Below, in pieces: positions 8,619 to 44,927 of a stretch of 64,000 nucleotides of DNA (its first letter is position 1; each line of letters starts with the position of its first letter). Location: the NCBI GenBank assembly GCA_964569655.1, contig CAZMTN010000002.1:901-64900 (forward strand), given 5' to 3'. Below the pieces are notes generated by a model. That model did no database searches and had not been told where the DNA came from. It saw only the letters and a program-made list of their open reading frames with translations. This DNA comes from an uncultured Candidatus Saccharibacteria bacterium. GTDB taxonomy: Bacteria; Patescibacteriota; Minisyncoccia; Phycocordibacterales; Phycocordibacteraceae. Made by a program: the position numbers and the translations under genes.

Positions 8619-8625
8619 GATAAGG

Positions 8626-24515: not shown

Positions 24516-24638
24516 ACAAAAAAAGCTCCGGGGAGCGTCAACCCAATGTATCATCTGGGTTCTAGGGCGTCAAACGGGGCTAAGATGAAGGGCGCAGCCG
24601 GGGGTGTACCCTGCTGCGCCCTGTGCTGTTTTGGCCCC

Positions 24639-25058
24639 CTATAAGAGGGCGAACGAGATGGCGGTGTCCTCCTCGTAGGGAGGCTCGGCCTCCTGGACCC
24701 GGATAGTCCGCTCGTTCTGCTCGCTCCACTGCACCGTGATGTCGAGCACGGAAAGCTTGTGCCATTTCAGCAGTTTCCTCACCTGGTCGAGGAGGTGCTG
24801 CTGCCCCTCGACGCTCAGATATCCGAAACGGCGGGAGATCTCAGCGGCCTTGAACTGGATATAGTTCACGTTCTCGTTCCTCGTAGAGAACGTGACCGAG
24901 CGATCCTGCCTGTTCGCCGGCCGCTTGCCGAGGAATGCTTCCACGGCCTCCTTGCGCAGCTCCGGCTTCGCAGCGAACAGGTCATTCAAGTGGCATTCGC
25001 CGATCCGTTCCCGGATCCTGAACGCAGGCGAGTTTAGTCCGTCTACTAACGTGTCCAT
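24639..25058 (-). CDS. uncharacterized protein, paralog A of a tandem pair inserted between rplE and rpsN (139 aa)
   Basis: ATG with AAGGAG SD; shares motifs with paralog B (GECHLNDLF vs TECHLHDII; LDITVQWSEQNERTIRVQEAE vs LDVEVEWGPESKRRIRAQEAG). Confidence 0.55.
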   Translation of the reverse strand: MDTLVDGLNSPAFRIRERIGECHLNDLFAAKPELRKEAVEAFLGKRPANRQDRSVTFSTRNENVNYIQFKAAEISRRFGYLSVEGQQHLLDQVRKLLKWHKLSVLDITVQWSEQNERTIRVQEAEPPYEEDTAISFALL

Positions 25059-25199
25059 GCTTACTCCTTACCCTGGGATGCTGCGACGCGGACGCACATA
25101 CGTCATGATCCTGGGTGTTTAAGCGTCCGGAGGCACCATAACAGAGCGTATTAGCAAAGTAAAAGGCGCGGCAGGATTTCTCCGCCGCGCCCATTGTTC

Positions 25200-25586
25200 T
25201 CAGATAAGAAAGAACCGCAGATCCCCTTCCCCGTGCTGCAGATTGGTCCTGTTGCCCGCTTCTTGCGCTCGGATGCGGCGCTTCGACTCCGGACCCCATT
25301 CCACCTCAACATCCAGCGTCTGGGATCGCTGGTCCTTCATGGCCGTCCGGACTCTGTACAAGAAGGCCTGCTGCGCGTCGATCGGCATCTTGAGATAGCG
25401 AAGCAGCAGCTTGGCATCCTTGAAATAGATATGCACTACTCCTCGGGTCTCGCTCCACCAAGGGTCAGCGACGCAGAAGAGGTCCTCTGAACGTTCGCCT
25501 TTGAAGGCCGCCTCGATATTCCGGCGGTTTTCCCCATCTCCGATGATGTCGTGGAGATGGCATTCAGTCACTGAAAGCGTCTTCAT
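25200..25586 (-). CDS. uncharacterized protein, paralog B of tandem pair (128 aa from internal ATG)
   Basis: internal ATG (MKTLSVTECHLHDII...) with GGAGAA SD; upstream track extension is low-complexity; same-strand as the r-protein operon. Confidence 0.55.
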   Translation of the reverse strand: MKTLSVTECHLHDIIGDGENRRNIEAAFKGERSEDLFCVADPWWSETRGVVHIYFKDAKLLLRYLKMPIDAQQAFLYRVRTAMKDQRSQTLDVEVEWGPESKRRIRAQEAGNRTNLQHGEGDLRFFLI

Positions 25587-25712
25587 TGCAGTTCTCCGGC
25601 TACGGGCTCTACACATGGACGCACATTGTGCATACCCGAGCGATAACGCGTCCGCCCGCACCATAGCAAAACGCCCCGGCGTTAGCCAGGGCGCTCTGTC
25701 TTCTTGTGAAAT

Positions 25713-28932: not shown

Positions 28933-29268
28933 TTATTTCTTAGCGGCCGGAGACGCAGCCTTAGCGGCCGCGATCTCGGACTCGGTCTTCTTCTGCTCGA
29001 TCTCCTTCTGCATCTTTCCGCCGTGGCGGATGAACTTCTTGGTCGGGGAGAATTCGCCGAGGTAGTGGCCGACCATCTCCTCGGAGACGAGGACGTCTAC
29101 GTGGGTCTTGCCGTTATGCACGGCAAAGGTGAAACCGACCATCTCAGGCGCGATCTGGGAGCGGCGGGACCAGGTCTTGATTGCCGAAGACGCAGACGGC
29201 TTCTTGCCGCTGATCTTCTTCAAAAGTTTCTGGTCCACGTATGGGCCTTTCTTGACTGATCGTGACAT
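28933..29268 (-). CDS. rpsS: 30S ribosomal protein S19 (with Lys/Ala-rich C-terminal tail)
   Basis: [19 protein letters not shown]... [13 protein letters not shown] conserved S19; its usual upstream neighbour rplB is displaced 11 kb away. Confidence 0.9.
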
Positions 29269-29303
29269 GGTAATTAAAAGCCCGCCGAAGGCGAGATATA
29301 GCC

Positions 29304-29332
29304 AAGATACAGGATGGCGGGAGGGACGTCAA
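29304..29332 (-). promoter_or_regulatory. candidate sigma70-like promoter TTGACG-17-TATCTT for the rpsS-led half of the split S10 operon
   Basis: hexamers with 17-nt spacer ~35 nt upstream of rpsS ATG on minus strand, just inside the island boundary. Confidence 0.35.
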
Positions 29333-29423
29333 ATCGGGCCTCCCTCCTGGCCCGGAGGAGGTGGACGGGATACGGGTTCATGGTATAATCACGGGCAGAA
29401 GTTGCAATTTGGAGAGTACATAC

Positions 29424-29801
29424 ATGGGCTCGAAGAGCACAGATATCGCGCAGCTGATCATCGACTGCCTGAGGATGAAGCCGTCCTTCACCCCCTGGGA
29501 AACCTTGAAGGAGGACATCGAGGACAAGATCCTCGAACGCCACGGGCTGACCGTACGGATCACCGTGGTCCGCTTCGACAACCAGGTCCGCATCGTCACC
29601 ATCGTGCACGATCGGAAGTCCGGGACCATCCGCCTCGAGAAGGAGAAGGACGGGTGGAAACGCAAGCTCCGCATGGGGCTCTATGCGAATCCTTTCGAAC
29701 CGGATCCCCTCCTGCTTGGCGGGAGTCTGGGAACCGCCGAGGACCCGGGAGCGGACAAGCCCATCCCTTGGCCGAGCATCAAGAAACGATCCGCAGCGTA
29801 A
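29424..29801 (+). CDS. hypothetical protein (125 aa)
   Basis: internal ATG with GGAGAG SD; followed by terminator GGGTCGGAAC-GAAA-GTTCCGACCC + TTTTTC (29810-29845). Confidence 0.45.
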   Translation: MGSKSTDIAQLIIDCLRMKPSFTPWETLKEDIEDKILERHGLTVRITVVRFDNQVRIVTIVHDRKSGTIRLEKEKDGWKRKLRMGLYANPFEPDPLLLGGSLGTAEDPGADKPIPWPSIKKRSAA

Positions 29802-29809
29802 TCTGCGGA

Positions 29810-29845
29810 TAAGAGGGTCGGAACGAAAGTTCCGACCCTTTTTCT
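29810..29845 (+). terminator. intrinsic terminator GGGTCGGAAC-GAAA-GTTCCGACCC + T-run
   Basis: 10-bp perfect stem with GAAA tetraloop. Confidence 0.6.
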
Positions 29846-29865
29846 TTGCGGTACACTAGGAGCAT

Positions 29866-30666
29866 ATGACCTTCAACCGCGACGCCTTCATCGGACTCTT
29901 CGTTCTCGGGCTGGTGCTCCTCGGGCTCTTCTGGTACGTAGCGACCCACCCCGCCCCCACCCCAGGGACGGGATTCCTCCCGCAGGGGCAGAACAACGTA
30001 GTGGACCGGGGTCCCCAGCAGATTACCGAGACCGCCGACTGGTACGCCATAGACGCCAAGTACCCGGGCACTACGCCCCTCTCCGTGACCGCAGGAGCCG
30101 AAGCTGAGGCTAATGCCGTCCTCCTCATGAAGACCTTCGAGGAGGGGCAGATAGAGCGCTTCAAGGGGGATCTAGCTGGCTATGACGCGGAATATCGGCA
30201 GTTCCTCGCTGCAGAGGGCCGCAAAGCGAGCCTTTCCATCGATTACGTGGGCTTCGCTTCCCCGAAGACCCTCTCCTACGTCTACGGCATGGTCGAGGAC
30301 ACTCTTGGCGCGCACCCGAATAGCTATTACCGCACCTTCACCTTTGATCTCGCTACCGGCGAAGTCCTCCACCTCGGGGACCTCTTCGAGGACCCCAACT
30401 ACCTCCAGACGCTGAGTACCCTCTCCCGCGAGCGCCTTCCGGCAGACCTGGCTAGCCGTGCGCAGATAACCGTGGACCAGGTGGATATGGATATGCTCAA
30501 CGCCGGCACCGCGCCCTACGAGGACAATTTCATCAACTTCTACATAGACGGCGAGGAGTTCGTGCTCCTCTTCCCGCCGTATCAGATCGCTGCGTACGTG
30601 TACGGGTCTTCCGAGCTCCGGTTCCCTAAGGCGGAGCTCCCGGGATTCAGCGCCGAGTACCGATAG
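29866..30666 (+). CDS. membrane-anchored DUF3298/DUF4163-like protein (RsiV/PdaC-N-terminal-like fold)
   Basis: N-terminal TM (FIGLFVLGLVLLGLFWYV) and C-terminal region NFINFYIDGEEFVLLFPPYQIAAY typical of DUF3298. Confidence 0.5.
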   Translation: MTFNRDAFIGLFVLGLVLLGLFWYVATHPAPTPGTGFLPQGQNNVVDRGPQQITETADWYAIDAKYPGTTPLSVTAGAEAEANAVLLMKTFEEGQIERFKGDLAGYDAEYRQFLAAEGRKASLSIDYVGFASPKTLSYVYGMVEDTLGAHPNSYYRTFTFDLATGEVLHLGDLFEDPNYLQTLSTLSRERLPADLASRAQITVDQVDMDMLNAGTAPYEDNFINFYIDGEEFVLLFPPYQIAAYVYGSSELRFPKAELPGFSAEYR

Positions 30667-30741
30667 AGAAAGCCGCGCGCGGGGCTTTCTTATTTAAAGG
30701 CCGGGTGTAGTATCACGGATGAAACAACGAAGGAGGATTCC

Positions 30742-30996
30742 TTGTTACGATCTTTACCGGCCTATGACACCTTAGGCATGCACGCCTCGTACGAAACGCT
30801 CTGCGAGACACTCGCCTCCCGGGAACCAGGCGAGGAGCAGATGAACCGGGACTTCGTCCGGAACTCGATACTCCGGGCGCGCGAAGAGCGTCAGCAACGG
30901 TTCGAGGGCGCGATCATCACGGCGCGACACCACGCCCCCTCTTCCGAAACTACCGGCTTCTGGAAGCGAGTTTGGAACCACATCATCCATACATGA
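30742..30996 (+). CDS. hypothetical small protein
   Basis: ORF only; no SD or family evidence. Confidence 0.25.
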   Translation: MLRSLPAYDTLGMHASYETLCETLASREPGEEQMNRDFVRNSILRAREERQQRFEGAIITARHHAPSSETTGFWKRVWNHIIHT

Positions 30997-31034
30997 GAAA
31001 AAGGCCCGCGAGTAAGCACTCGCGGGCCTTTCAT

Positions 31035-31577
31035 CTAGCTGATATCGAACGTCAGGCGCTTCGGGAACCGTAGCTCGTGCTTGTCGCCGAGCATCTGGAT
31101 CTCCTTCTTGTGCAGCCCGCGTGCGGACACGGACATGCATCTACGATCGCCGCCCAGAGGCTTAGGGGAATACCCGGGGGAGATCCACCGCTTCCCCGCG
31201 GAGAAACCGCGTCCGTCGAGCAGTATGCGGATCCGGTGCCCCGAGATGGAGACGTCGAGGATCTTCAGTCCTTGCTCGGCCCAGAGGCTTTCCGTGCTCC
31301 TCTGGTAGAAGATCTTCGACCATTCGTTCTTCTCGATCTCCTGGCCGTAGTGATACACGCTGCAGGTGAACTGGACGACGAAATAGGTCTCGGCGAACGT
31401 CCCTTCCCACTCCCAGCGACCCCCCTTCCAGGAAGCTGTCTGGTCCAGCCTGGTTTTCGGGATCAGGGCTGCGCGGACCGCGACCATGACGCCGTTCTCA
31501 AGCGCCTCCTTATGTGAGGCTGAAACCAAAGGCCCGCCTTCGAAGCGACTCTTCGCGAAGATACTGCTATGCTGCAT
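31035..31577 (-). CDS. hypothetical protein (180 aa)
   Basis: ORF upstream and co-directional with the oxygenase/YgjP/hsd block. Confidence 0.4.
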   Translation of the reverse strand: MQHSSIFAKSRFEGGPLVSASHKEALENGVMVAVRAALIPKTRLDQTASWKGGRWEWEGTFAETYFVVQFTCSVYHYGQEIEKNEWSKIFYQRSTESLWAEQGLKILDVSISGHRIRILLDGRGFSAGKRWISPGYSPKPLGGDRRCMSVSARGLHKKEIQMLGDKHELRFPKRLTFDIS

Positions 31578-31650
31578 AGGCTTCCCCTTTCAAGAAAAGC
31601 GTCTTTCCGCTCACTGTATACGCCTCATCCGGGAGTACCGCAACCGGCGC

Positions 31651-32484
31651 CTAATCCACGAACATCTTGTCGAACTCCTCGAAAGGCATGTCGTAGAAGG
31701 AACCGGGCGGCCACTTCTGCTGCGCGCCGAACTTGGTCTTATCGAAATAGCGGGCATTCCTGAAGTTGAAGAAGCAGACCGCGGAGAAGCGTCCGTTCTT
31801 CGCGGTATCCTCGTTCGCGACCACGCGGTGCGAGAGCGCCCGGAGCTGGCAACGTGAGCGATTTTGGAGACCGTTCCCCGCGATGATGACGGTCTGGTCA
31901 TGCGAGAGCGGCATGCTCACCCATTCGCGCGTCTTGAAGTCGAGGCGCTCTACGCCCGAGTCGCTCTCGTAGAGGTGGAGGGTGAATCCTCCCTTGTCGT
32001 TATGCGGGGTGGCTATCTCCTCCCCTGGCGCGCGGGTGCCGAAGTAATGGAGGAAGCGGATGAGCCAGTCCGGCTGCTTGGCGAGGACATCGTCCGCGAA
32101 GTCGGGGATGTCATAAGTCTTCTCGATGGATTCGGCGAAGCTCCTGATCGTCGGGACCATGAGCTCGTTCAACGCGAGCGCCTTCTCGACGAAAGCTGGT
32201 GCTATCACTGGGTCAACCTTCCGCGCATGCTCCATAAGCCGCTCTCGCGCCTCTGTACGCAGATGCATGTTCTCCTTGAGGTCGAAGGTATTCCCTTCCT
32301 TGAGCTCGTACCCGTTTCCGCTGGTCTTCGTGTCTGGGTCATACGGGAAGTTGAGTTTCTGCTCTCGAGGGAGCTCGCAGAATGCTTTCCAAGCAGCTAC
32401 CGCTTCCTCGACGCCCTTACGGAGATCTTCGGGATAGGAGACGTAGAGGCGGCCGAGGGTTTGGAGGTCGTCAAAGTTTTGCAT
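31651..32484 (-). CDS. 2OG-Fe(II) oxygenase superfamily protein (isopenicillin-N-synthase-like non-haem dioxygenase)
   Basis: HxD...H iron-binding pattern (PHNDKGGFTLHL ... LSHRVV) and N-terminal DIOX_N-like region; start at internal ATG MQNFDDLQ (alternative upstream start at 32562). Confidence 0.55.
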   Translation of the reverse strand: MQNFDDLQTLGRLYVSYPEDLRKGVEEAVAAWKAFCELPREQKLNFPYDPDTKTSGNGYELKEGNTFDLKENMHLRTEARERLMEHARKVDPVIAPAFVEKALALNELMVPTIRSFAESIEKTYDIPDFADDVLAKQPDWLIRFLHYFGTRAPGEEIATPHNDKGGFTLHLYESDSGVERLDFKTREWVSMPLSHDQTVIIAGNGLQNRSRCQLRALSHRVVANEDTAKNGRFSAVCFFNFRNARYFDKTKFGAQQKWPPGSFYDMPFEEFDKMFVD

Positions 32485-32638
32485 GACAATAGTATATATG
32501 GTTCGAACTTGATCATCAGGCGGAACCGATCTCCCCTCGTTTGAACCACTGTTTGCAATCATCGACCCTAAAATTGAGAAACTCCGGGCGATGCATAAGA
32601 CCAGTCCGAGGAGATTTGAGCTAGATGTATTTGGACCG

Positions 32639-33310
32639 TTAGATATTTAACACTCCTTCGTTCGCACGAAGCCATGTTTTTGCTTTTTCAAAGGATGGAT
32701 ACATGATCTTTACTCTCGACCAAAAAGAGTCGGAATGATTCTTGTGTTCTAAGTGAGCAAGCTCGTGGACGACCACATAGTCAATGACCCAAAGAGGAGC
32801 CATGATGAGCCGCCAACTAAAGTTAAGGTTGCTGGTAGTGCTGCATGAACCCCAACGCCTGTTAGCGGTCGTTATCTTTATTGAGGAGTAGGAAAGGCCA
32901 GAACGACGAGCGTACAACTCCACACGCTCAGTAATCTGCTTCTTGGCCTCTGTCTTGTACCAAGAAATGAGAACAGCCCGAGCGTTCTTCTTTTCCCTTG
33001 AGCTGAGAATGAAAGCACTCTTGAAGTCGAGCTTCTTCGTTGTCTTCTTATCGAAACGAAGTTTGTAGGTCTTACCGAGGTAGAGGAAGCTCTCTCCTTC
33101 CACGTATTCATGTGCAACGGCTCGTGGTTGTGAGCTTATCTTCGCTGCGGCCTGCCGTATCCAGTTCAGCTTCGACTCTATGAGCCGTTCGATGTAGGAG
33201 ACCGGCGTATTCATCGGTGCGCGAACAATAAGAGACGCATCAGCAGTTATGGCCAATGCGATGGTACGCCGCTTGGAACGTATGAGCTTGTACTTCTTAG
33301 AAGTTGCCAT
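32639..33310 (-). CDS. YgjP/DUF45 (M48-like) zinc metallohydrolase, commonly linked to type I R-M loci
   Basis: C-terminal HELAHLEHKNHS (HExxH) zinc motif; 14-nt overlap with hsdR stop. Confidence 0.7.
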   Translation of the reverse strand: MATSKKYKLIRSKRRTIALAITADASLIVRAPMNTPVSYIERLIESKLNWIRQAAAKISSQPRAVAHEYVEGESFLYLGKTYKLRFDKKTTKKLDFKSAFILSSREKKNARAVLISWYKTEAKKQITERVELYARRSGLSYSSIKITTANRRWGSCSTTSNLNFSWRLIMAPLWVIDYVVVHELAHLEHKNHSDSFWSRVKIMYPSFEKAKTWLRANEGVLNI

Positions 33311-36300
33311 AGATGTGATACGCCAGCTCAGTTATCTTCTGACTGAGAATAAGGCGCTTGCTGAACATTGTCTCATTGCTCTTGAACTCAGTTAAGAGGT
33401 GTGAAGCGATAAAGCCCTTGAGACGGCGCTGTGCAGGAACATTGTTCCAGAAATCGACCATCTCCGTCTCTGTCTTGATGCGCTCCAAGATGTCCTTTGT
33501 AATGCGCACCAGGTTCTCTTTTTGGTCAGCACTTAGGTCTGCCAGGTCAGCAACGCCGTAGACTTCTTTCTTAAGAAGACCGAGGAATGGAAGTTCTTTC
33601 CGACGGTCCAGGCCATAGCTCTCTTCTCCTTCACGGCCCTGTCGCATTTCAATGCGCAGCATCTCAAGCTCACGGGCAAGCTGCTCCCAGTTCTGGTGAT
33701 ACTGCTGGAGCACTTTCTCAAGCTTCTCACTGAACCGAGCATAGAGTTCCGGGTCTTCGTCCGCATGCTTCTCAATGTAGTCGCCTATGGCGTGCTTCAG
33801 CTCGTCAGAGCGAGCCTTCGGTGGCTTTACCTTGGCTTTGAGCTCGAACTTCTCATCGAAGATAGGGGTCGGAGGAATCTTCGGGTCAACGCCCTTGGAT
33901 ACCAGGTACTCGTCGAGGATGTCGCGCACCTTCTTACTTACATCACGAAGGTTAAGCTTCTCGTCGCGGTAGCGATTCCGGGCGACTTGGGCGATAAATC
34001 CGAACTGTTTAAGGTCGCGGCTGTACTTGAGTGCCTCCGGTTTCGGCAGCGCTTTATCCATAGCGTTCGAGAACTTCCTAAAGAGCGTAAGGAAGTCATT
34101 GCGCGTCTCGTCGTCAGCAAGCAGGTCAACGCATACATCTATATCGTCGAGGTCATGCACTTCGTACTTACGGAAGAACTCGGTAATTTCCGCCCGAGCG
34201 TGTTCCAGCTCGTCCATGTCCCGACCTTCATCCTTAAGGACTTCGAGCGCCTCATCAATATCCTCATCGTTGAAATTAGAGAGGGCTTTGCGCAGATGAT
34301 TGACCACACCCACGTAATCGACGATAAAGCCTGCGTTCTTATTCTTCTCGATACGATTCACGCGAGCGATAGTTTGCAAAAGGTTATGCTCCTTTATCAC
34401 GTTATCGAGGTACATCACCTGCTCTATAGGCGCATCAAAGCCGGTAAGGAGCATGCCTTGCACCACAAGAATACCGACATCACCTTCAAGCCCGTCCTCG
34501 TTCTTCTTTCCGTATGGAAGCTTGAATCGAGCGATAGCATCCTCATGCTTCCTGCCGTCTGTATACGGTCGCATTGAAGGGTCGTCATTGTTGCTTCCTG
34601 AAATAACAACTTCCACTTTCATACGAGAGAACTGTTCTGGGTCTACTGAAATCTCAGACTTCGACTTAAGCGAAGTGATAAGGCCTTGAATCCACGCATC
34701 GTTCTGCAAGAGCGTATCGAAAGCTTGCTTGTACTTGATGGCTGCATGACGAGAGGTGGCGACTACCTGAGCTTTGAATCCGTTCGGATAAATCTGGCTC
34801 GCGTAATGCGTGAGCATATCCTCTGCTTTCTCTCGTATGGTTTCATCGGCCTCAAGATACGCCTTCCAAGTGTAGCGGCCCTGGATAAGCGCCTTAGTAT
34901 CCTCGTCCGCTCCTTCAAATACGTCCTCGAAACGCTTGTTCATCGCATCCGTATCGCTGACTTCCGCTTTGTGCGTACGTCCTTCGTAGATGATTTCAAC
35001 CGTAACCCCGTCCTCGACCGCTTCGCGTATCGTGTACTTGTCGATGTAGCTACCGAACGTCTCTTCCACCTTATCTATAGGCGTGCCGGTGAAGGCGATC
35101 TTTACTGAGTTCGGAAGGGACCGGTGCAGGTTTGCTCCAAGCAGCGAAAACTGACTGCGGTGCGCTTCGTCAATAAGAACGAGTACCTGCTCACTCTCGT
35201 TAAGGACCGGGAACTCCTGCATGAGGTCATGCTCTTGGAACTTATGAATCATGCCCATGATGAGGTCAGGGGTCGTTGTAGAAAGGCAGTCCTTAAGCTG
35301 GCTGATGCTTCTCGCTACTTTAAGCGTATAACCAACTCCTTTGGCTGTTTCGCCGAGCTGCTTCTCAAGGTCTGTACGGTCCGTGATGAATACGGTTTTG
35401 AAACCGGTTAGCACTGGGTCGTGGTACATCTTGCGCACCACCATCATCATCGTGAGCGACTTACCTGAACCCTGGGTGTGCCACACGATACCGCCCTTCT
35501 TCGCAGGCGATTCACCCGAGCGCAAACGTTCGATGATTTTATGAACCGTACGGAACTGCTGATAGCGTGGAGCAACCTTAATGACGCGACCCTTGCTGCC
35601 ATCTTGGAACACCATGAAGGACTGAATGATGTCGAGCAGGTTCTTTCGGTCGAGAACGCCCCGTACAAAAATATGCTGGCTCGTGATGGATTCGCTTCCT
35701 TCTGTATCGATTTCAGCAATGGTGGCCGGGTACGGGTCCTTCCACTCGATGAAGTGCTCGTACTCTCCGGTTATGGAAGCATAGCGGCATATCTGTTTGC
35801 TTGTTGCGACTAGAAGCTGGTTGTACCAGAACAGCTTGGCGTTTCCTTCGGGCTCTTCGCCGCGACGGTTCTGATACCGCATGAGTTGCTCGACCGCTTC
35901 GCCCATAGGGTCGGGGAGGTATGCAGACTTACATTCGATAACAACGAGCGGAAGACCGTTCACGAAGAGCACGATGTCAGGGATGATGTGTTTCTCGGTG
36001 CCAGGGATATTTACCTTGAGCTGAGAAATCGCCAGAAACTCGTTGTCCTCAGACTTACTGAAATCAATGAACCTCACGGCTTCAGTTTTGCCAGTGCTCC
36101 TATTCTCGGCAGAAGAACACTGAAGGAGCTTCTCGAAGATATAGCGGTTGTTCTCAACAAGGCCACCAACGATGCCTAGCGTAGTGATTTCTCGTACGAG
36201 AGACGGAAGCTGGTCCTGCTCAAGCCATGGGTTAAGGCGCATGAGGGCAGCCTCAAGCTTCTGTGTAAGGACCACATCCGAAAAGGCCTCACGGAAGGTT

Positions 36301-36464
36301 ATGGTAGGGTCGCCCTTTCCTGCTTCGCCAGCACGCAGAATAGACCAGCCAAGGCCTTCGAGCTGCCGAAGCAGGGGCTCCTCGACGTATTGTATTTCGT
36401 TCAGGATGAGGCGTTTCTTGTCCATGTTAATTTTTACGTCCGCCCATAGGATGGACAGTACCAA
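33297..36464 (-). CDS. hsdR: Type I restriction enzyme R subunit (HsdR)
   Basis: 1055 aa; N-terminal nuclease region, SF2 helicase motifs (TQGSGKS Walker A, DEAH box VLIDEAHRSQ, motif VI QTIARVNR); downstream of hsdM-hsdS. Confidence 0.85.
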   Translation of the reverse strand: MVLSILWADVKINMDKKRLILNEIQYVEEPLLRQLEGLGWSILRAGEAGKGDPTITFREAFSDVVLTQKLEAALMRLNPWLEQDQLPSLVREITTLGIVGGLVENNRYIFEKLLQCSSAENRSTGKTEAVRFIDFSKSEDNEFLAISQLKVNIPGTEKHIIPDIVLFVNGLPLVVIECKSAYLPDPMGEAVEQLMRYQNRRGEEPEGNAKLFWYNQLLVATSKQICRYASITGEYEHFIEWKDPYPATIAEIDTEGSESITSQHIFVRGVLDRKNLLDIIQSFMVFQDGSKGRVIKVAPRYQQFRTVHKIIERLRSGESPAKKGGIVWHTQGSGKSLTMMMVVRKMYHDPVLTGFKTVFITDRTDLEKQLGETAKGVGYTLKVARSISQLKDCLSTTTPDLIMGMIHKFQEHDLMQEFPVLNESEQVLVLIDEAHRSQFSLLGANLHRSLPNSVKIAFTGTPIDKVEETFGSYIDKYTIREAVEDGVTVEIIYEGRTHKAEVSDTDAMNKRFEDVFEGADEDTKALIQGRYTWKAYLEADETIREKAEDMLTHYASQIYPNGFKAQVVATSRHAAIKYKQAFDTLLQNDAWIQGLITSLKSKSEISVDPEQFSRMKVEVVISGSNNDDPSMRPYTDGRKHEDAIARFKLPYGKKNEDGLEGDVGILVVQGMLLTGFDAPIEQVMYLDNVIKEHNLLQTIARVNRIEKNKNAGFIVDYVGVVNHLRKALSNFNDEDIDEALEVLKDEGRDMDELEHARAEITEFFRKYEVHDLDDIDVCVDLLADDETRNDFLTLFRKFSNAMDKALPKPEALKYSRDLKQFGFIAQVARNRYRDEKLNLRDVSKKVRDILDEYLVSKGVDPKIPPTPIFDEKFELKAKVKPPKARSDELKHAIGDYIEKHADEDPELYARFSEKLEKVLQQYHQNWEQLARELEMLRIEMRQGREGEESYGLDRRKELPFLGLLKKEVYGVADLADLSADQKENLVRITKDILERIKTETEMVDFWNNVPAQRRLKGFIASHLLTEFKSNETMFSKRLILSQKITELAYHIYGNF

Positions 36465-37725
36465 CGAGAAGTGCCTTTATCAAACCAAGTCTTATTCGCT
36501 GGAATTTGTTTAAAACTAACAGGCTTGAACTTATATCTTCTGCGGCAGTTCTAAATGTAGTTAGTATTCTCTTTTGTTCTGCCAAGTCTGGGACAGCAAG
36601 AGGCAAAGCATTCAATGCTTGTTGATTTATACTGCTTTGATTTGATGAGTTAATTTGTGCAACGATTTTTTTCCTTACCGCATATGATTTCAAGCAACGA
36701 AAAAGTACCTCAGGAAACATTAACGAGGTATCTACAGAGAGTTTCAGCATATTTGATTCGTATACTGCCTCTTCTGGTAAGTCGCTTATTAAAACAGGCC
36801 TACCTACACCTTCCACGGTTGCAAAGACTCTAGAAACCAGAATATCGCCCTCTTTGAGGGAAAAGGTCTCGAGCTCGTTCTTTGAAAGATTTGCTCTACG
36901 CGCTAGCGAATAGTCTAGCGTTCCATGCCTGGTAAAGCTTGTTTGTCCTACCAACAATGTTCCTGTTCCTATCTCACTAGCGGGCTTGTAGATACCGTTT
37001 CGAGGGTTGGCGATAAGCAATTCGCGAAGAGGTCTAACCTTCCATTCCGAAGGAACTCTCCCTAATGGTGAAGCCTTAAACTTATGTGTTTTCTCGTTGC
37101 GAATTACCCCGTTTTCATCCACACCATATTCAAACAACTCTCGTAGCACGCCGTCCAAAATTCTCTCCTTCTTTTCTACTCTGTTCTCAAGACTGGTAAT
37201 TGTTCTTTTAACGTCCTCGAGAATGGCTACGATTTGACTCTGTTGTTCAACAGACGGTACGCGGACAAGAAGTTTACGGATATGTCTTCCGTAAAGATGA
37301 ACAATGGTTGAGCCTTGCGCAAACCGTGCCAGATTTCTTTTCTCTTCGTGAGTTAGTAGATACGCGATGAAACGTGAGTCAATTTCGCTTCCTGATTTTT
37401 TACGAAGAATGTTTATATCTCCACCAAGAAAGACACGACTCTGCTCGATTGCTGCTGCAGTTGCAACATCAAGAGCTGATGTAGTTGTTGATGCCGGAAT
37501 AAGAACATCTCCCACAACAGAAGGAATTCCTTCGTGCGCGTCAGTGTAGCTCAGAGCTTCCTTTATGACTTCGGAATACGTTGTGTAGAGCTCTCCATAG
37601 AGAAGGCAGGGGTTCTTACCATCTCGGTCTAACTTTTCTTTCGATAAACCTTGACCTTTTTTGAAGTCAAAAACTTCCTCTAGCGCTATTTCTTTCCATC
37701 CATCTACCATGGTCGTCTTGCTCAT
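36427..37725 (-). CDS. hsdS: Type I restriction-modification specificity subunit (HsdS), two target-recognition domains
   Basis: 432 aa with duplicated TRD architecture and conserved central/distal coiled-coil spacers; overlaps hsdM (4 nt) and hsdR (38 nt). Confidence 0.75.
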
Positions 37726-40142
37726 AGGTATCCTAACTGGCTAAGAGTTTTGTCGAGTTCTCGAGCACTTTTCTCTGCGGTTTTCTTAAGCACGTCGAGT
37801 GAAAGGTGATATTTGTCCCATAATCCTTCGAGCGCCGTTCTTACTTCCTGCTCTTCAGAGGACAGGTAGCGCATGAGTTGGGAGAGAATTCCGTCATGGA
37901 ATTTCTGCAGGATAAGCGTTCGAGCTTCGGCTTCAGTAAAGGAACCCTTCTTCGCCTCTACCTTACGCTCAAGGTCTTCGCCTCTATCTTTCAGAATGCG
38001 CTTTGCATCCTTGAGCTTAGACTCCTTATCCTTAATATCCGCAAGCGCTGTTTCTAGGTTCTTCAATTCCTTTTCAGAAACCTTTGCATCTAGGTAAGCG
38101 AGGTTCGCTATTTGGGTATTGAGGTAGTCCTTTACCGATTTCAACGTCTTGTCTTCTTCGTCGGTATCAACCTCATCAACTAACGTCAGAAGCGCTGCTT
38201 GAATGTTATCTATACTGATTTCTATACTCTCTATCTCGATTAGCTCCTTCTCAAAGAAAGCTTTGCGAATGTATTCGTCTGGAATAAGGCTGGGACTCCA
38301 GCCTACGGTTACGATGGCCTTAAGGTCGTAGCGAACGTCCTCCCACCAGTTCACGAAAACACCAGCCTTCTGGAAGTCATCGAGCGTCTTGATGCCTGAT
38401 AGCGCCTCCTTGAAAGATACAATTTCTTCGCGTCGGAAATCAGCGACATGGTTATTCTTAGGGAACTTCACAACCTTCTTTTGTGCTTCGCTCCACCACT
38501 CATCAAGGGCTTTCTTTGCTTGTCGCTTAACAGTAAGTACCCCTTCAAGCGTTGCCACTAGGTCGCGTATGTCTTTCCTCTCGGTAATATCCGTCTTGAA
38601 CTGAGCGTATTGCTCATCGACATCATTAAAAAAGTCCGAGGCCTTCGCCTTATATTTCTTGAATTGAGGTTCGTGCAGTACTATTTCTCGCTTAGGGATA
38701 CCGCCTTCAAGATGCGCTCTGACATCCTGTATTTCAGGCTCAGGTGAGTTATCGACATAACGGCGTATGTTGAGATTGTATTCATTCTCTTGTATTTCAG
38801 GCAGGTCAACGAGGCGTGAGTAGTTAGGGACCTGAAGCTTGTGTGCGAATACGTGGTCGATTTTTTCTATATCTTCAGGACGGAGGAAGTTCTGGTTCCT
38901 GCTCTCGCCATACTCCGCGTCAGCATTGATGAAAAAGATTTTTCCCTTAGTGTCCTTTGATTTCTGCTTATTGATAACGATGATGCAAGCAGGGATACCG
39001 GTCCCGTAAAAAAGATGCTGCGGTAGAGAGATTATGGCCTCGATGAGGTCGTCGTTCACGATACCTTCGCGAATAGCTTTCTCTACACCACCACGGAAGA
39101 GCACGCCGTGCGGCATGACAGTCGCCATCATTCCATCATCCTTCAAGGAGGCAATCATATGCTGTACGAACATAAGGTCTGCCTTCTTGCCGGTTTCAGG
39201 CGCAAAGCCGTAGCGGAATCGCTGCGGATACTCGAGCGCTGCGCGTGAGTAATTTTGTGAGAATGGTGGGTTCGCTATCACGCGGTCGAACTTCTTTATG
39301 TAGCCACGCTCAACGAATTTCGGAGTCTGGAGGGTGTCTTCGTACTCAACATGAGCAACGTTGATGTTGTGCAGGAACATATTCATCTTGCAGATGGCCC
39401 AGACCGTACCGTTATTGTCCTGACCGTAGAGCGCTATGTTCTTTGAGTTCTGTCCGGTCTCGTCGAGATACTGCTTCGATTGAATGAGCATGCCGCCTGA
39501 ACCGCATGTTGGGTCGTACACGAACATGCCTGACTGCGGCTTCAAGAGACGCACCAAAAGGCGCACAACATGAGCTGGAGTATAGAACTCGCCGCCCTTC
39601 TTTCCTGCGCTGTCCGCGAATTCCTTGATGAGGTATTCGTATGCGGCTCCCAGGAGGTCCGGGAACTCGAAGTCGTCGTTCGTAAGTGGGAGTGTATCGA
39701 AATGATGGATGAGATCGATGAGTTGCGGGTCTTTCACCTTGCGCTTAGTACCGATTTGAGCGAGAAAGTCGATGTGATTCAACACCCCGCTCAGCTCACT
39801 GTTGTGCTTCTCAAGTTCACCAAGAGCCTTGTTCAGTTTGTTTCCAACATCGTCATGCAAGACGCGAATCTTCTCCCATCGCGCACCAGGAGGAATAAAA
39901 AATGTGTCACCGTACTGCGTAGAGTCATCGAGAAGTTCATCGATTTGCGATTCCGATAGCCCTTGCTTGGTCCACTTTCTTCGTATCTCTTCTCGCTCGA
40001 CGTCGAACTGGTCAGAGACACGCTTAAGGAAGAGCATCCCGAAGATATACTCTTTGAATTCCGACGCATCCATCTTGCCGCGCAAAATATCTGCGGCAGC
40101 GAGAAGATGACGTTCTAGATGTTGGAGAGTAATTTTTTGCAT
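37722..40142 (-). CDS. hsdM: Type I R-M N6-adenine DNA methyltransferase subunit (HsdM) with ~300-aa C-terminal coiled-coil extension
   Basis: N-terminal HsdM-N domain, SAM-binding ([11 protein letters not shown]) and catalytic NPPF motif (IANPPFS); 806 aa, well above typical ~500-550 aa. Confidence 0.85.
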
Positions 40143-40228
40143 TTATTTAAAAGTGCATTTCTTGGTTCAAACTTGGAAATCGTCTGGTGAAAATAGGGTT
40201 CGAACCTCTCCAGCCTACTTCATTTAAA

Positions 40229-40258
40229 CGAAGAAAGCACCCATCTGGGTGCTTTCTC
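40229..40258 (-). terminator. hairpin terminator immediately downstream of rplB (AGCACCCA-TCT-GGGTGCT + T-rich on minus strand)
   Basis: 8-bp stem right after rplB stop, where rpsS would normally follow. Confidence 0.45.
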
Positions 40259-40259
40259 T

Positions 40260-41108
40260 CTATCCCTTCTTCCTCTTCCCGACCTTTCGGCGGGACACGA
40301 TGAAGACGTTGGAGTACTTCTTCGGCGTGCGGGTCTTCTGGCCCTTGCCGGTCGGCTTGCCCCACATGGACTTGGCGCGCTTGAGGCCTCGTCCCTGGCG
40401 TCCCTCGCCGCCTCCGTGCGGATGGTCTACCGGGTTCATCGCGGTACCGCGGACGGTAGGGCGGATGCCGAGCCAGCGGCTCCTACCTGCCTTGCCGAGG
40501 TGCACGAGGTTGTATTCCTCGTTGCCTACGGAACCGATGGATGCCCAGCAGAGGTCCGATACGCGGCGGATCTCGGTCGAAGGAAGCTTCACCTGCGCAT
40601 AGCCTGCGTCATGGGCGACGACCTCGGCGTAGTTGCCGGCGGAGCGAGCCAAAATCGCACCTGCTCCTGGCTTGAGCTCGATGCCGTAGATGAAGGTACC
40701 TACCGGGATCTTGCCGAGCGGCATGCGGTTGCCGAGCTTGATCGGCGCGTCCTCAGCCACCATGAACGTGTCGCCTACCTTCATGCCCTTAGGCGCGATG
40801 ACGTAGCGGCGGGCGCCGTCCGCGTAGAGGGTGCGGGCGATGAACGCCGAGCGGAACGGATCGTACTCGATGGTCTCCACCTTAGCCGGGATGCCCTTCT
40901 TGTTGTATGCGAAATCGATATCGCGGAGCTTCTGCTTGTGCCCGCCGCCCTGGTGGCGGGTGGTGATGCGGCCGAAGCCGTTGCGGCCCGCCTGGACCTT
41001 CTTGCCCTTCATGAGCTGCTTCATCGGGCGGTCGCCGGAAAGAAGCTCACGGTACGGGAGCGTGGTCATGTTGCGGCGGCTTGGCGATGTTGGGCGGTAG
41101 GATTTCAT
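40260..41108 (-). CDS. rplB: 50S ribosomal protein L2
   Basis: conserved L2 (SGDRPMKQLMKGKK...HGGGEGRQ...); 282 aa. Confidence 0.95.
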   Translation of the reverse strand: MKSYRPTSPSRRNMTTLPYRELLSGDRPMKQLMKGKKVQAGRNGFGRITTRHQGGGHKQKLRDIDFAYNKKGIPAKVETIEYDPFRSAFIARTLYADGARRYVIAPKGMKVGDTFMVAEDAPIKLGNRMPLGKIPVGTFIYGIELKPGAGAILARSAGNYAEVVAHDAGYAQVKLPSTEIRRVSDLCWASIGSVGNEEYNLVHLGKAGRSRWLGIRPTVRGTAMNPVDHPHGGGEGRQGRGLKRAKSMWGKPTGKGQKTRTPKKYSNVFIVSRRKVGKRKKG

Positions 41109-42253: not shown

Positions 42254-42862
42254 TTATGCGGAGACGATCTCGACCAGCGAGCCGCGGGCTCCCGGGATAG
42301 CCCCGGAAACGATGATCTGATCCCCGTCGACGGCGAGGATGCGGAGGTTCTTCACGGTGACGCGGTCCGAGCCCATGCGCCCGCCCATGCGCATGCCCTT
42401 GGCCACGCGTCCGCCGGCGCGTCCGCCGGAGCCGCCGATGGAGCCCGGCTCGCGCTCCGAGTGCTTCTGGCCGTGCGAGCGCGGGCCTCCCTTGAAGTTG
42501 TAGCGCTTCACGACGCCCGCGAAGCCCTTGCCCTTCGAGGTGCCGGATACGGCGACCTCATCGCCTACCGCGAAGATGTCCGCCTTGATCTCTCCCCCTA
42601 CGGTGAAGTCTCCCGCGGTGCGGAACTCCTTGATGGCCTTGTATGCCTTGCCCTTCCCGTGGCCGAGGACGGCCTTCGAGACGGTAGACGCGCGGCGGGT
42701 GCCCTCGGCCACCTGGACAGCCTCGTAGCCATCCTTGGTGTCCTTGGTCTTCACCTGGGTGACGACCACAGGCGCAGCCTTAAGGAGGGTGCCGGCGATA
42801 GCCACACCGTCCTCGGTGAATACCTGGGTCATGCGCTCTTTGCGAGCAAGGATGAATTTCAT
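42254..42862 (-). CDS. rplC: 50S ribosomal protein L3
   Basis: start at internal ATG MKFILARKERMTQVFTEDG...; conserved L3 C-terminal half; rpsJ is not adjacent. Confidence 0.9.
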   Translation of the reverse strand: MKFILARKERMTQVFTEDGVAIAGTLLKAAPVVVTQVKTKDTKDGYEAVQVAEGTRRASTVSKAVLGHGKGKAYKAIKEFRTAGDFTVGGEIKADIFAVGDEVAVSGTSKGKGFAGVVKRYNFKGGPRSHGQKHSEREPGSIGGSGGRAGGRVAKGMRMGGRMGSDRVTVKNLRILAVDGDQIIVSGAIPGARGSLVEIVSA

Positions 42863-42946
42863 GAAAAAAATTAGCGCCACGAGGGGCGCGAGGGCCGAAG
42901 CCCCTTGCACCTTGGTCCGGCCGTCAGCCGTACTTGTGACCTAGGG

Positions 42947-42975
42947 ACTATACAGGGGTCTCCCTGAAGATGCAA
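42947..42975 (-). promoter_or_regulatory. sigma70-like promoter TTGCAT-17-TATAGT upstream of rplC, followed by ~85-nt GC-rich structured leader
   Basis: strong hexamers with 17-nt spacer on minus strand; leader contains short hairpins (GGGGCTTCGGCCC, GCGCC...GGCGC) before rplC ATG; preceded by terminator hairpin GCCCGGC...GCCGGGC (42990-43025). Confidence 0.45.
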
Positions 42976-43026
42976 GAAAAGGTAACGCCCGGCCTCCAAG
43001 AAGGAAGCCGGGCGCAGTTTGCAGTT

Positions 43027-43860
43027 TTAGCGACGCCTCTTTGCCGGTTTCGCCTCAGTGACGAAGCCGTACACAGGCCAGCTGGCGACGATCACGGTGA
43101 GCACCACCGGGAGAGCCGGGCTGACATCCCAGATCTGCCCCAGGCCGAGCGAAACCCGCAAGAGGTTGAGCTGGGCGAGGAAGACCGCGCCGGCGATCAG
43201 TGACGAGAGGATGCGGACCAGGTTCCCCCGGACACGCTCCGCCACGCGGCTGAGCAGGAAATTCGAGGCCAGGAAGGAAATCCCGGCATCGATCCCAACG
43301 ACAACGCAGACCAACGCCGCGAGCTGCGGGTCCTGCAGGAGGGCTGACGCGTAGTCATCCCCCATGAAGGAGGCCAGCACGATGTGCAGCATGCCCGCGA
43401 TGAGCACGAGGAACATCGCTCGCCGTGCCAAAAGGCTCGAGGGCTGATACCCGGCAGGAGGCTTGATGGCCTCGAACACGAGCATGCCCACGCCCACCGC
43501 GAAGACCATGGAGATCACCTGAGTGACCATATAGCCCGCGACGAAGTCGAAGGGCATGGGCGTCTTCTTGTTGACCAGGAAGACCACCACGCCTTTCACC
43601 AGAAGTTCGGTGAGGCCGGCGACCCCGCTGGCGACGCCAGCGCGCGCCCACACGGGCCCCTTGTAAAGGCTGCCAATGAGGTAGCCGTTACTGCAGACGA
43701 ACCAGGCGCCGAGGAAGAGAGGGGCGAGCAGCATCGGCTGCCTCCCCACCGTTCCCACAGAGACCGGGTCGAGAAACATCACCAGGATGCAGAACAGCGT
43801 GGTCATGATGACGCCCGCGACCAGCGACCGTAAGATGTAATCGGTTTTCTCGTTGCCCAT
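43027..43860 (-). CDS. polytopic integral membrane protein (~8 TM), function unknown
   Basis: hydrophobic helices throughout; no transporter signature recognized. Confidence 0.5.
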   Translation of the reverse strand: MGNEKTDYILRSLVAGVIMTTLFCILVMFLDPVSVGTVGRQPMLLAPLFLGAWFVCSNGYLIGSLYKGPVWARAGVASGVAGLTELLVKGVVVFLVNKKTPMPFDFVAGYMVTQVISMVFAVGVGMLVFEAIKPPAGYQPSSLLARRAMFLVLIAGMLHIVLASFMGDDYASALLQDPQLAALVCVVVGIDAGISFLASNFLLSRVAERVRGNLVRILSSLIAGAVFLAQLNLLRVSLGLGQIWDVSPALPVVLTVIVASWPVYGFVTEAKPAKRRR

Positions 43861-43973
43861 CAGTTTTCTCCCTTCGATGGAATGTAATTGGAACTAACCG
43901 TGTACTATTTTAGCACATGAATCTGGTATGTCAAATATGCAAAGAGCCGCCCTCGTAGAGCGGCTCTTCCCTT

Positions 43974-44192
43974 CTATCTTCGCCTTCTAGGATACCCGGT
44001 ATCCGGAGGATCGAGGTGGGCGCAGGTATCGCATGCGATAGCGCCTCCGAGGAGTTCCACCAGATCCCTCTTCTCGTAGATGTAGCAGCCCTTGATGCTG
44101 CACACCGCGATCGGCGACGGCAGTGCCGGCGGCGCGAACGTCGGATCCCGATCCATCTGGCGAAGCACGTCCTCTCTCTTGAATCCGCCCAT
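43974..44192 (-). CDS. small Cys-containing protein (72 aa; CxxxxxC...CxxC, possible zinc ribbon)
   Basis: internal ATG with AAAGGAG SD; MGGFKREDVLRQMDRDPTFAPPALPSPIAVCSIKGCYIYEKRDLVELLGGAIACDTCAHLD. Confidence 0.4.
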   Translation of the reverse strand: MGGFKREDVLRQMDRDPTFAPPALPSPIAVCSIKGCYIYEKRDLVELLGGAIACDTCAHLDPPDTGYPRRRR

Positions 44193-44284
44193 GGGAACTC
44201 CTTTCTGCCGAGACGATAGCACGGGACGCATGGTATGCACGTGAAAAGCCGCGAGCAAGGGATGCCCGCGGCTTTCTTCGATGC

Positions 44285-44653
44285 TCACGAGAGGGTTGGG
44301 GTGATATCCATGCCCAGGAGCTCCTGTCGGAACGTCCTCCGCAGGTGACCATACTCCCGCATGAGAGCGCGTCCATTCCACGCCTGGGCTTGTGCCTCGG
44401 TAAGCTGGAGCGACCTTTTGCATTTCGTCTTCAAGCGCAATGCCCTCAGCTTCAGCGACTCGTAGTACCAGATGCGCCGCCGGATAGAGCGATCGATTGC
44501 ATCGTATTCGCTCCTATTCACCAATTGGCTCTCCAGGTCCTGGACATGCTTGTCCACCTTATCCAGGATCTCGTTCGCGATCGCGAGCTTGTAGCGGCGC
44601 GAGTCGGTCAGCCGTGCGTTGATGGCGTCACGCCACCGTTTGAGGAATGACAT
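44285..44653 (-). CDS. hypothetical basic protein (122 aa)
   Basis: ATG with AGGAG SD; no family. Confidence 0.4.
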   Translation of the reverse strand: MSFLKRWRDAINARLTDSRRYKLAIANEILDKVDKHVQDLESQLVNRSEYDAIDRSIRRRIWYYESLKLRALRLKTKCKRSLQLTEAQAQAWNGRALMREYGHLRRTFRQELLGMDITPTLS

Positions 44654-44735
44654 GCTGTTCTCCTGTACTTGCCTGGCGGGGACTATAGCACAAAAGCCGC
44701 GGAGTATTTCATCCGCGGCCTTCTACGTAGTTCGC

Positions 44736-44927
44736 CTAGTGCGTGAGCAAGAAAAGATTATGTCTGGCCTCGGCCTCGACGCTGTTGTTGTGTTCGCACA
44801 TCTCGACGTTGAGGTTCGGGTTCGCCCGGTCTCGCTCGACCTCTTTGAGAAGACCTTCCTCGATGGAGATCAGGTCCTTCATCGTCTTGCGCGCAGGGGC
44901 ACTGAATAGTCCGCTGAAAATACTCAT
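44736..44927 (-). CDS. hypothetical small protein (63 aa)
   Basis: internal ATG with strong SD GAGGAGG; no family. Confidence 0.35.
   Translation of the reverse strand: MSIFSGLFSAPARKTMKDLISIEEGLLKEVERDRANPNLNVEMCEHNNSVEAEARHNLFLLTH

Follow-up and report, generated by a model that had tools for sequence, protein, structure and literature searches.

In the 64,000-nucleotide stretch of an uncultured Candidatus Saccharibacteria bacterium analyzed here (GenBank assembly GCA_964569655.1, contig CAZMTN010000002.1; the whole stretch is referred to below as the window), the ribosomal protein genes rplB and rpsS are separated by 10,991 bp, and a Type I restriction-modification (R-M) cassette, hsdM-hsdS-hsdR-ygjP, occupies the part of this gap that adjoins rplB. 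Taking the evidence as a whole, we are confident that the cassette was acquired into a gap in the ribosomal gene cluster that is peculiar to this lineage, that was present before the cassette came and that is permissive for accessory genes.

Composition of the rplB-rpsS gap

We compared the block at 32600-40230 with 82 control windows of equal length. Its GC content was 0.484, versus 0.606±0.013 in the controls, its dinucleotide delta* was 89 (26±7 in the controls, with a maximum of 44), and its tetranucleotide distance was 0.037 (0.0096±0.0018, with a maximum of 0.014). Along the sequence, the drop in GC content from ~0.60 to 0.45-0.52 was confined to ~32.5-40.23 kb, with edges that are approximate, being sharp on the rplB side and gradual near 32,400-32,640. 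The GC content at third codon positions (GC3) was 0.36-0.62 in the four cassette genes (lowest in hsdS, at 0.36, and 0.56 in hsdM), versus 0.79-0.89 in the ribosomal genes. Because its composition is foreign, lying far beyond all 82 controls on three measures, we conclude that the four-gene block was acquired horizontally. The first-pass annotation of this sequence had read the low GC content in the same way, and the region is indeed far from uniform when the GC content and codon usage of the island are set against those of its flanks.

The 3.3 kb adjoining rpsS gave a different result. The segment at 29269-32560 had a GC content of 0.591 and fell inside the host range on GC, delta* and tetranucleotide distance, and the GC3 of its 2-oxoglutarate (2OG) oxygenase gene, orf180, DUF3298 gene and orf125 was host-like (0.75-0.83). 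This segment is native in composition and lies outside the foreign island, which is ~7.6 kb long rather than 11 kb. The AT-richer island of ~11 kb that had been described is thus borne out between 32,600 and 40,230 and has to be given up for the remainder. The genes of the gap and its two borders are as follows.

40260..41108, minus strand: rplB (uL2), with Pfam Ribosomal_L2_N and Ribosomal_L2_C; GC3 0.84; closes the upstream ribosomal protein transcription unit
37722..40142, minus strand: hsdM, 806 aa, the N6-adenine methyltransferase of the Type I system
36427..37725, minus strand: hsdS, specificity subunit, 432 aa
33297..36425 (longer open reading frame [ORF] to 36464), minus strand: hsdR, restriction/translocase subunit, 1042 aa from ATG 36425
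32639..33310, minus strand: YgjP-like (DUF45/M48-type) metallopeptidase gene, PF01863, 204 bits
31651..32562, minus strand: 2OG-Fe(II) oxygenase-like gene, PF03171, E 4e-7; GC3 0.75
31035..31577, minus strand: orf180, host composition, GC3 0.81
30742..30996, plus strand: small candidate ORF of <=84 aa, uncertain; GC3 0.73
29866..30666, plus strand (opposite to the ribosomal genes): DUF3298 membrane-anchored protein gene, PF11738; GC3 0.80
29424..29801, plus strand: orf125, GC3 0.83, with a GGAGAG ribosome-binding site upstream; divergent from rpsS
28933..29268, minus strand: rpsS (uS19), Pfam Ribosomal_S19; opens the downstream ribosomal protein transcription unit

The cassette as a Type I R-M system

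The cassette has what a Type I system comprises: an HsdM, an HsdS with two recognition domains, an HsdR with nuclease and translocase domains, and linkage of the three genes. Pfam, together with NCBIfam and PADLOC for the R-M subunits, identified the system and the YgjP gene at full length, in agreement with the earlier description of a complete Type I system between rplB and rpsS. HsdM carries HsdM_N (PF12161) and N6_Mtase (PF02384, 359 bits), scores 263 bits against TIGR00497 (cut-off 243), matches PADLOC model PDLC03031 over residues 3-805 of 806 with 1007 bits, and retains both the AdoMet-binding motif DPTCGSGG and the catalytic motif NPPF. The C-terminal third of the protein (window 37722-38700) is a ~330-aa helical extension in which we found no Pfam domain, and matches to solved structures end near residue 480. 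The extension is typical of, and conserved in, a long (~810-aa) HsdM subfamily that has thousands of members and is already represented in PADLOC by PDLC03031. HsdS contains Methylase_S (PF01420) in two stretches, corresponding to two target-recognition domains, and many Specificity_I models of PADLOC between them cover both halves. HsdR consists of HSDR_N, SWI2_SNF2/ResIII, T1R_D3-like and T1RH-like_C (HindI-like C-terminal) domains, scores 482 bits against TIGR00348, above the cut-off, and matches REase_I of PADLOC over its full length; the PD...ECK motif of its PD-(D/E)xK nuclease and the GSGKS and DEAH motifs of its superfamily 2 motor are intact.

The stop and start codons along the string had been reported to overlap throughout. 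This holds for hsdM and hsdS (4 nt) and for hsdR and the YgjP gene (14 nt) and probably fails between hsdS and hsdR: the most likely hsdR start is ATG 36425, which gives the 1042 aa seen in its homologues (1041-1042 aa) and leaves a gap of 1 nt after the hsdS stop codon. All four genes lie on one strand, no terminator was found inside the string, and we infer that they are transcribed as one unit.

Judged by its family, the cassette would work as a classical Type I system, in which M2S1 would methylate a bipartite target set by HsdS and HsdR would translocate along and cut unmethylated incoming DNA. The YgjP-like peptidase would be an accessory partner of the R-M genes; its gene is conserved in four contexts independent of one another and so belongs to the cassette unit. 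We take YgjP/COG1451 to be a known associate of Type I systems, a point on which our literature search found nothing useful. When the gap was scanned with PADLOC, HsdM, HsdS and HsdR matched, and YgjP, the 2OG oxygenase, orf180, DUF3298 and orf125 did not. Because PADLOC recognizes the R-M subunits only, the gap holds a single R-M system and not a multisystem defense island; "defense island" is the name that it had been given.

The rplB|rpsS junction in related loci

Because of its closest uL2 matches, which came from Kaiserbacteria, Paceibacterota and Patescibacteria metagenome-assembled genomes (MAGs) at 62-71% identity and from metagenome contigs at 76-82%, we place the lineage of the window in the Paceibacteria/Kaiserbacteria group of Patescibacteria (candidate phyla radiation [CPR]). 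Exact-protein look-ups of uL2 and uS19 gave no match, and those of the DUF3298 and orf180 proteins returned only an identical contig from the Logan assemblies (L161).

The minus-strand str-S10-spc gene order of the window is rpsL, rpsG, fusA, tuf, rpsJ, rplC, rplD, rplW, rplB and then rpsS, rplV, rpsC, rplP ... secY. We compared 22 proteins of this ribosomal cluster, and the 21 junctions between their genes, with 160 loci, 27 of them Paceibacteria-like (58-82% uL2 identity to the window). The distance from rplB to rpsS exceeded 300 bp in 15 of 21 Paceibacteria-like loci (median 691 bp, range 26-4048 bp), whereas it exceeded 140 bp in none of 129 loci from other bacteria. A location described as rare is therefore rare across other bacteria and common in this clade. 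One non-CPR locus, L049, was considered as an exception lacking rpsS and was rejected as such, since rpsS directly follows rplB there and the match had been missed; the locus holds 367 N. The presence or absence of the island could also be compared across the relatives: R-M genes were absent from this junction in all 27 related loci.

In L081 (80% uL2 identity), the junction is merely 204 bp long and consists of a long terminator hairpin, the promoter-like sequence TTGACT-17-TATCTT and a leader; the evident homologue of these last two in the window is TTGACG-17-TATCTT...GCGGGCTTTTAATTACC-ATG. Because this near-empty junction already has a terminator and a promoter, the cassette appears to have broken no operon, and the comparison indicates that rplB|rpsS is a transcription-unit boundary predating the arrival of the R-M genes. 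The proposal that the island interrupts the core ribosomal operon does not survive this comparison, the cluster being split at rplB|rpsS in L081 already. The DUF3298 gene has homologues that are positioned and oriented beside rpsS as it is in the two closest relatives: that of L083 shows 38% identity over 218 aa (E 1e-31), and that of L082 is truncated. The gene is therefore an ancestral occupant of this subclade's gap.

The signals predicted around the gap are compatible with such a boundary.

40231..40258, minus strand: terminator-like hairpin that follows the stop codon of rplB directly, with a 12-bp stem and the tail UUCGUUUAAAU
31000..31031, both strands: perfect 14-bp hairpin between convergent genes, predicted bidirectional terminator, minus-strand tail UUUUUCUC
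29811..29842, plus strand: predicted intrinsic terminator 3' of orf125, dG -29.1, z -7.3, tail UUUUUCUUU
29362..29389, plus strand: promoter-like site for orf125, TGGACG-16-TATAAT with TG extension, 10/12 match
29304..29332, minus strand: promoter-like site for rpsS, TTGACG-17-TATCTT, 9/12 sigma-70 match
29269..29295, minus strand: rpsS leader, with a short hairpin at 29281-29295 that begins 8 nt past the -10 hexamer, a U-rich tract to the AUG and no Shine-Dalgarno sequence

The hairpin after rplB has a dG of -20.1 kcal/mol (z -5.3), and none of 200 shuffles was equally stable; strong hairpins occur at the matching place after rplB in L096, L083, L009, L101, L010, L008 and L014 and also in L081. 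Its U-tract is interrupted, and the terminator may be leaky. The rpsS promoter is kept in relatives, as TTGACT-17-TATCTT in L081 and L083 and as TTGAC-N16/17-TAnnAT in most. Both the terminator and the promoter had been proposed in the first-pass annotation, and both stand. The hairpin at 31000-31031 (dG -29.5 on the minus and -28.2 on the plus strand, with z values of -6.7 and -8.1) is probably the 3' end of a minus-strand unit beginning at hsdM.

On these predictions, transcription of rplC-rplB would stop, perhaps incompletely, at 40231-40258. The next minus-strand unit would be hsdM-hsdS-hsdR-ygjP, possibly with the 2OG gene and orf180, and would run to 31000-31031; orf125, the DUF3298 gene and perhaps the small ORF would be read the opposite way from the 29362-29389 promoter, the terminator in this direction being that of 29811-29842, and rpsS and the genes downstream of it would start from 29332-29304. 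The cassette would probably be expressed from an unrecognized promoter or by transcripts that read through the terminator of rplB, which is imperfect.

The 2OG-Fe(II) oxygenase and DUF3298 genes are present as annotated, the former with an alternative start at 32484 that yields 277 aa, the length at which it was called in L161. No family match was found for orf180 in Pfam, NCBIfam or PADLOC or for orf125 and the small ORF in NCBIfam or PADLOC. Codon-position GC content (GC3 ~0.52-0.55) led us to reject two further annotated ORFs, at 30772-31140(-) and 29274-29609(-), which are probably shadow ORFs and not genes.

Other open junctions and their cargo

Besides rplB|rpsS, the junctions that exceeded 300 bp in Paceibacteria-like loci were rplE|rpsN (7/13), rpsJ|rplC (4/14) and tuf|rpsJ (1/14); the remaining 17 never did. 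The window is open at tuf|rpsJ (1283 bp), rpsJ|rplC (2703 bp) and rplE|rpsN (1158 bp) as well and is otherwise tight across the cluster compared. Further interruptions in the window lie at fusA|tuf and rpsG|fusA; the spans recorded for these other interruptions are 43027-45510, 46020-46496, 24639-25664, 49516-50025 and 52358-55992. The genes within them have host composition, and a scan of ten of their ORFs (two plus-strand rpsG|fusA genes were left out) gave no Pfam match.

The rplB|rpsS junction of relatives holds MazE with PemK/MazF (L001), a MazE-like with a ParE-like protein (L013), a Phd/YefM antitoxin (L101), a PKD/CARDB protein with an IS200-type transposase, Y1_Tnp (L005), DUF5674 (L008), the diacylglycerol kinase DAGK (L009) and several unknown genes. 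At rplE|rpsN and rpsJ|rplC we found YafQ/RelB (L001 and L086), a ParE-like toxin (L089), GIY-YIG (L086) and a reverse transcriptase (L012). The same core genes thus flank unrelated accessory content across relatives, the ribosomal cluster being the region compared.

Two of these loci deserve separate mention. In L088, a very AT-rich 2.1-kb rplB|rpsS gap contains an N6-adenine methyltransferase fragment (NPPY) and two neighboring ORFs at 9481-10704 (-), which may be what is left of a Type II/IIG R-M system, located at the junction that the window's cassette occupies. In L012, a MAG labeled Zambryskiibacteria, the rplE|rpsN junction carries a 325-aa reverse transcriptase at 16455-17432 (+) (RVT_1, E 1e-22) that may be of the retron/defense type or a group II intron remnant.

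Taken together, these observations make it somewhat more probable than otherwise that rplB|rpsS, rplE|rpsN and rpsJ|rplC are hotspots of gene gain and loss throughout Paceibacteria, with toxin-antitoxin (TA), R-M, reverse transcriptase and transposase genes as cargo, that the transcription restarts there and at rpsL often share a leader design, and that the ribosomal genes, being highly conserved, may act as homology arms for cargo exchange between diverged CPR genomes. A limited literature search found no description of recurrent open junctions or of an rplB|rpsS hotspot in the ribosomal cluster of CPR bacteria.

On the reading that we favor, the S10-spc cluster of this lineage is split into units at rpsJ|rplC, rplB|rpsS and rplE|rpsN, where the gene upstream of the split tends to end in a terminator and the one downstream to have its own promoter. 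Accessory genes are tolerated at these junctions, and turn over between relatives, because insertions there are not polar on essential genes. In the window, the gap would first have held the native DUF3298, orf125, orf180 and 2OG genes, and hsdM-hsdS-hsdR-YgjP would then have arrived from a lower-GC Patescibacteria donor, adjoining the rplB terminator. The cassette would either have been released from an integrative element and then recombined into the gap, illegitimately or through flank homology, or be the remainder of an entire element that decayed where it had inserted.

A leader design shared by ribosomal transcription units

The architecture of the rpsS leader recurs in nine relatives, in which the stem sequences differ yet pair in each locus; in a MAFFT alignment of the ten rpsS leaders, the stems fell out of register. 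We defined the motif strictly, as a short GC hairpin followed by a U-rich tract and, at a distance of 2-20 nt, by a start codon that lacks a Shine-Dalgarno sequence. By these stricter criteria, it precedes rpsS in 7 of 21 Paceibacteria-like loci (six relatives and the window). Elsewhere in Paceibacteria-like loci, the window included, it was found at rpsL (5/7), rplC (4/19) and rpsN (1/4) and at none of ~250 internal ribosomal protein gene starts. In other bacteria, the corresponding figures were 0/111 for rpsS, 1/96 for rplC and 0/21 for rpsL. The hairpins of the rpsS and rpsN leaders begin 5-8 nt after the -10 hexamer, and a role as a 5' stabilizer, an attenuator or a translation element is possible.

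Within the 64-kb window, the motif occurs at only six gene starts, four of which are the first genes of ribosomal units (rpsL, rplC, rpsS and rpsN); a fifth belongs to an ndk-like gene. The sites recorded are as follows.

57089-57115, minus strand: leader-motif site
42862-42889, minus strand: leader-motif site
29268-29295, minus strand: leader-motif site
24515-24536, minus strand: leader-motif site
17953-17974: further leader-motif site

The rplC leaders of the window (42863-42990, minus strand) and of L001, L002, L008 and L089 have GGACCAATGG in common. The sequence complementary to it, CCATTG, lies in the terminal hairpin ahead of the U-tract and AUG, either in the loop or in the 5' arm. This arrangement suggests a ribosomal protein leader attenuator with alternative antiterminator and terminator pairings; the rplC leaders matched no Rfam family at gathering score. 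In L001, L086 and L089, short tandem repeats (for example of the CCTAG-, ACTAACT- and ATTCGGA- types), and not a hairpin leader, immediately precede the rpsS start codon.

Two RNA genes were noted elsewhere in the window. A tmRNA gene lies at 8215-8619, and a tRNA-Ile gene with anticodon TAT lies at 5431-5504 (-). Such a tRNA is uncommon in bacteria, in which AUA is usually read by a lysidine-modified CAT tRNA.

Homologues of the cassette

The closest HsdM homologues are 72-85% identical and come from Patescibacteria wherever they are named. In every other context examined, the hsdM-hsdS-hsdR-ygjP string, in the same order, lies in integrative elements, and the YgjP gene is directly 3' of hsdR in L162-166, L168/169 and L174. 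In L162-166, the cassette sits beside tRNA-Ala, a gene for a 543-aa serine recombinase and a Prim-Pol gene and is followed by a GmrSD-type gene, and L167 and L172/173 represent a related element. The cassette of L168/169, a 971-kb Patescibacteria contig, is accompanied by serine and tyrosine recombinase and HTH_17 genes, and that of L174 is accompanied by a Toprim primase gene and HTH_17. We also noted that in L168 (26-998 and 5405-17512; GCA_028688515.1), the R-M-carrying element lies only ~4.4 kb from rpsL/rpsG, a further instance of mobile DNA near ribosomal genes.

The other hosts of the cassette have GC contents of 0.45-0.51 and their cassettes 0.40-0.49, values that agree with the window cassette (0.48) and not with its host (0.60). 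Nucleotide identity to L162 was 78-81% across hsdM and across hsdR and ygjP, and there was none over hsdS or the flanks, as would be expected if the specificity gene had been shuffled and the unit that moved were the size of the cassette. No tRNA or tRNA fragment was found at the borders of the foreign block, and the tRNA-Ala genes beside the recombinase gene in L162 and L167 have no repeated fragment within those loci.

Weighing the alternatives

Several points weigh against an acquisition into a preexisting boundary as we have described it. The promoters and terminators have been predicted solely from consensus matches or folding energies, hsdM is preceded by no sigma-70 promoter or Shine-Dalgarno sequence that we could accept, and the rpsS leader hairpin (dG -7.8, z -0.5) is, taken alone, not beyond its shuffles. 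The comparison rests on 27 loci from MAGs and metagenome contigs that were picked for the similarity of their rplB, among which no strain-level relative was found (the nearest genomes share 76-82% uL2 identity), and so no empty site of the same species was seen. With regard to the route of arrival, Pfam detected no integrase, recombinase, transposase or primase in the gap, and a search for direct and inverted repeats over 28.8-40.5 kb returned chance-level matches only, with no att-like pair or target duplication at the borders. The stretch separating the rplB terminator from hsdM contains a tRNA-like sequence, GGTTCGAACCC...ACCA. We rejected it as a relic of a tRNA att site, because a permissive Rfam search recognized no tRNA and the sequence recurs neither at the opposite border nor in the related elements.

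As to that route alone, a full integrative element with recombinase and primase, like those of L162, L168 and L174, might have integrated here and lost its mobility genes by later deletion. All other cassette contexts examined are such elements, and CPR genomes are small, so that the loss of dispensable mobility genes is plausible. Nevertheless, we regard this route as possible but doubtful: nothing is left in the gap of a recombinase or primase, att repeats and a tRNA target are lacking, the edges of the foreign composition lie within ~90 nt of hsdM and within ~80 nt of ygjP, so that the decay would have had to be very clean, and the known elements integrate at tRNA-Ala or elsewhere, not at rplB|rpsS.

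It is unlikely that the location is itself adaptive, whether by lending accessory genes the strong transcription of the ribosomal genes or by shielding them from deletion through their essential neighbors. Such coupling would fit with the recurrence of TA, R-M, reverse transcriptase and transposase genes, all of a selfish or defense type, at the three open junctions and with the interrupted U-tract of the rplB terminator, which may leak. However, the cargo also includes genes of ordinary housekeeping or unknown function, such as those for DAGK, DUF5674, DUF3298 and a PKD/CARDB surface protein, it lies on both strands, and strong terminators flank most of it. The first-pass annotation had proposed that essential flanks enforce maintenance of the island, which found no support here; in the loci compared, the only junctions that ever open are the three resembling unit boundaries, which is a better fit to a permissive site.

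The view that the entire 11 kb is one acquired defense island, inserted into an intact ribosomal operon and kept by its essential flanks, seems to us very improbable. Its R-M part is clearly foreign, and with rplB and rpsS <=140 bp apart in 129 non-CPR loci, the location seems exceptional at first sight. Against this, 29269-32560 is host-like in GC, GC3 and oligonucleotides, DUF3298 occupies the same place in L082 and L083, a terminator and a promoter are present in the near-empty junction of L081, the junction is open in 15/21 relatives, and defense models match the R-M genes alone.

Least credible of all is a low-GC R-M block misjoined from another organism in assembly or binning. In its favor, the GC step at the rplB end is abrupt, the cassette has homologues in lower-GC Patescibacteria and the Logan contig stops near both gap borders, which means that the assembly graph branches there, in the conserved ribosomal genes. 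Against it, this 11,054-bp contig from an independent assembly (SRR15237806; L161) is 100% identical to window 40326-29273; it takes in the final 67 nt of rplB, stops 5 nt short of the rpsS start codon and covers both joins of the foreign block, so that two false joins would have to be reproduced by two assemblers. The ends of L161 at the gap borders hint at co-occurring related strains that share ribosomal genes and are no proof of an empty-site variant. Acquisition of the cassette into a preexisting permissive gap is the explanation that we prefer.

Comparison with known systems

Integration hotspots and defense islands between conserved core genes, with TA- and restriction-rich cargo, are familiar from the pan-genomes of Escherichia coli and other bacteria. 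The junctions described here resemble them in having conserved flanks and variable cargo and differ from them in lying inside S10-spc, which is contiguous in the 129 loci sampled from other bacteria, at lineage-specific operon breaks, and in that the window has no integrase or att site associated with them. One large CPR lineage thus has fixed breaks in the "universal" S10-spc string, and the breaks collect mobile and defense-type genes. Such junctions can mislead island predictors and break assemblies, and the block of ribosomal markers on which CPR phylogeny and binning draw is, as a result, not contiguous in every case. Should the hotspots and the leader motif prove true, they would offer a simple way into the question of how accessory genes are acquired and expressed by very small genomes.

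The cassette itself is like classical Type I R-M systems (the nearest solved structures are methyltransferases 7vru/7vs4 and the HsdM and HsdR of EcoR124I/II) in its three subunits, with the same domains and motifs, encoded in one gene string. It is unlike them in its long HsdM, with a ~330-aa extension outside the solved structures, and in the YgjP-like peptidase gene within the operon. With the elements of other Patescibacteria (L162-167, L168/169 and L172-174), it shares the same four genes, order and overlaps; those elements carry recombinases, Prim-Pol or Toprim primases and HTH_17, at least two lie at tRNA-Ala and one has a GmrSD-type enzyme, whereas the window copy has none of these. 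Patescibacteria are mostly without CRISPR, and the cassette is an added case of their trading Type I R-M systems among themselves.

A genomic island with hsdR, hsdM and hsdS has been reported in the Paceibacteria MAG nzgw456 (PMC12455944). Like the window, it represents a full Type I system acquired horizontally in Paceibacteria; unlike the window, its accessory gene encodes an ATP-dependent endonuclease and not YgjP, and no location between ribosomal genes and no recurrent junction were described for it (PMC12455944). The same study found that Patescibacteria transfer genes mostly among themselves and that ribosomal protein genes are overrepresented in predicted islands (PMC12455944), and open junctions of the kind described here may explain the presence of ribosomal genes in those islands. 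Set beside these systems, the R-M cassette is an ordinary further member of a known family, and the hotspot pattern and the leader design are the more interesting features of the locus.

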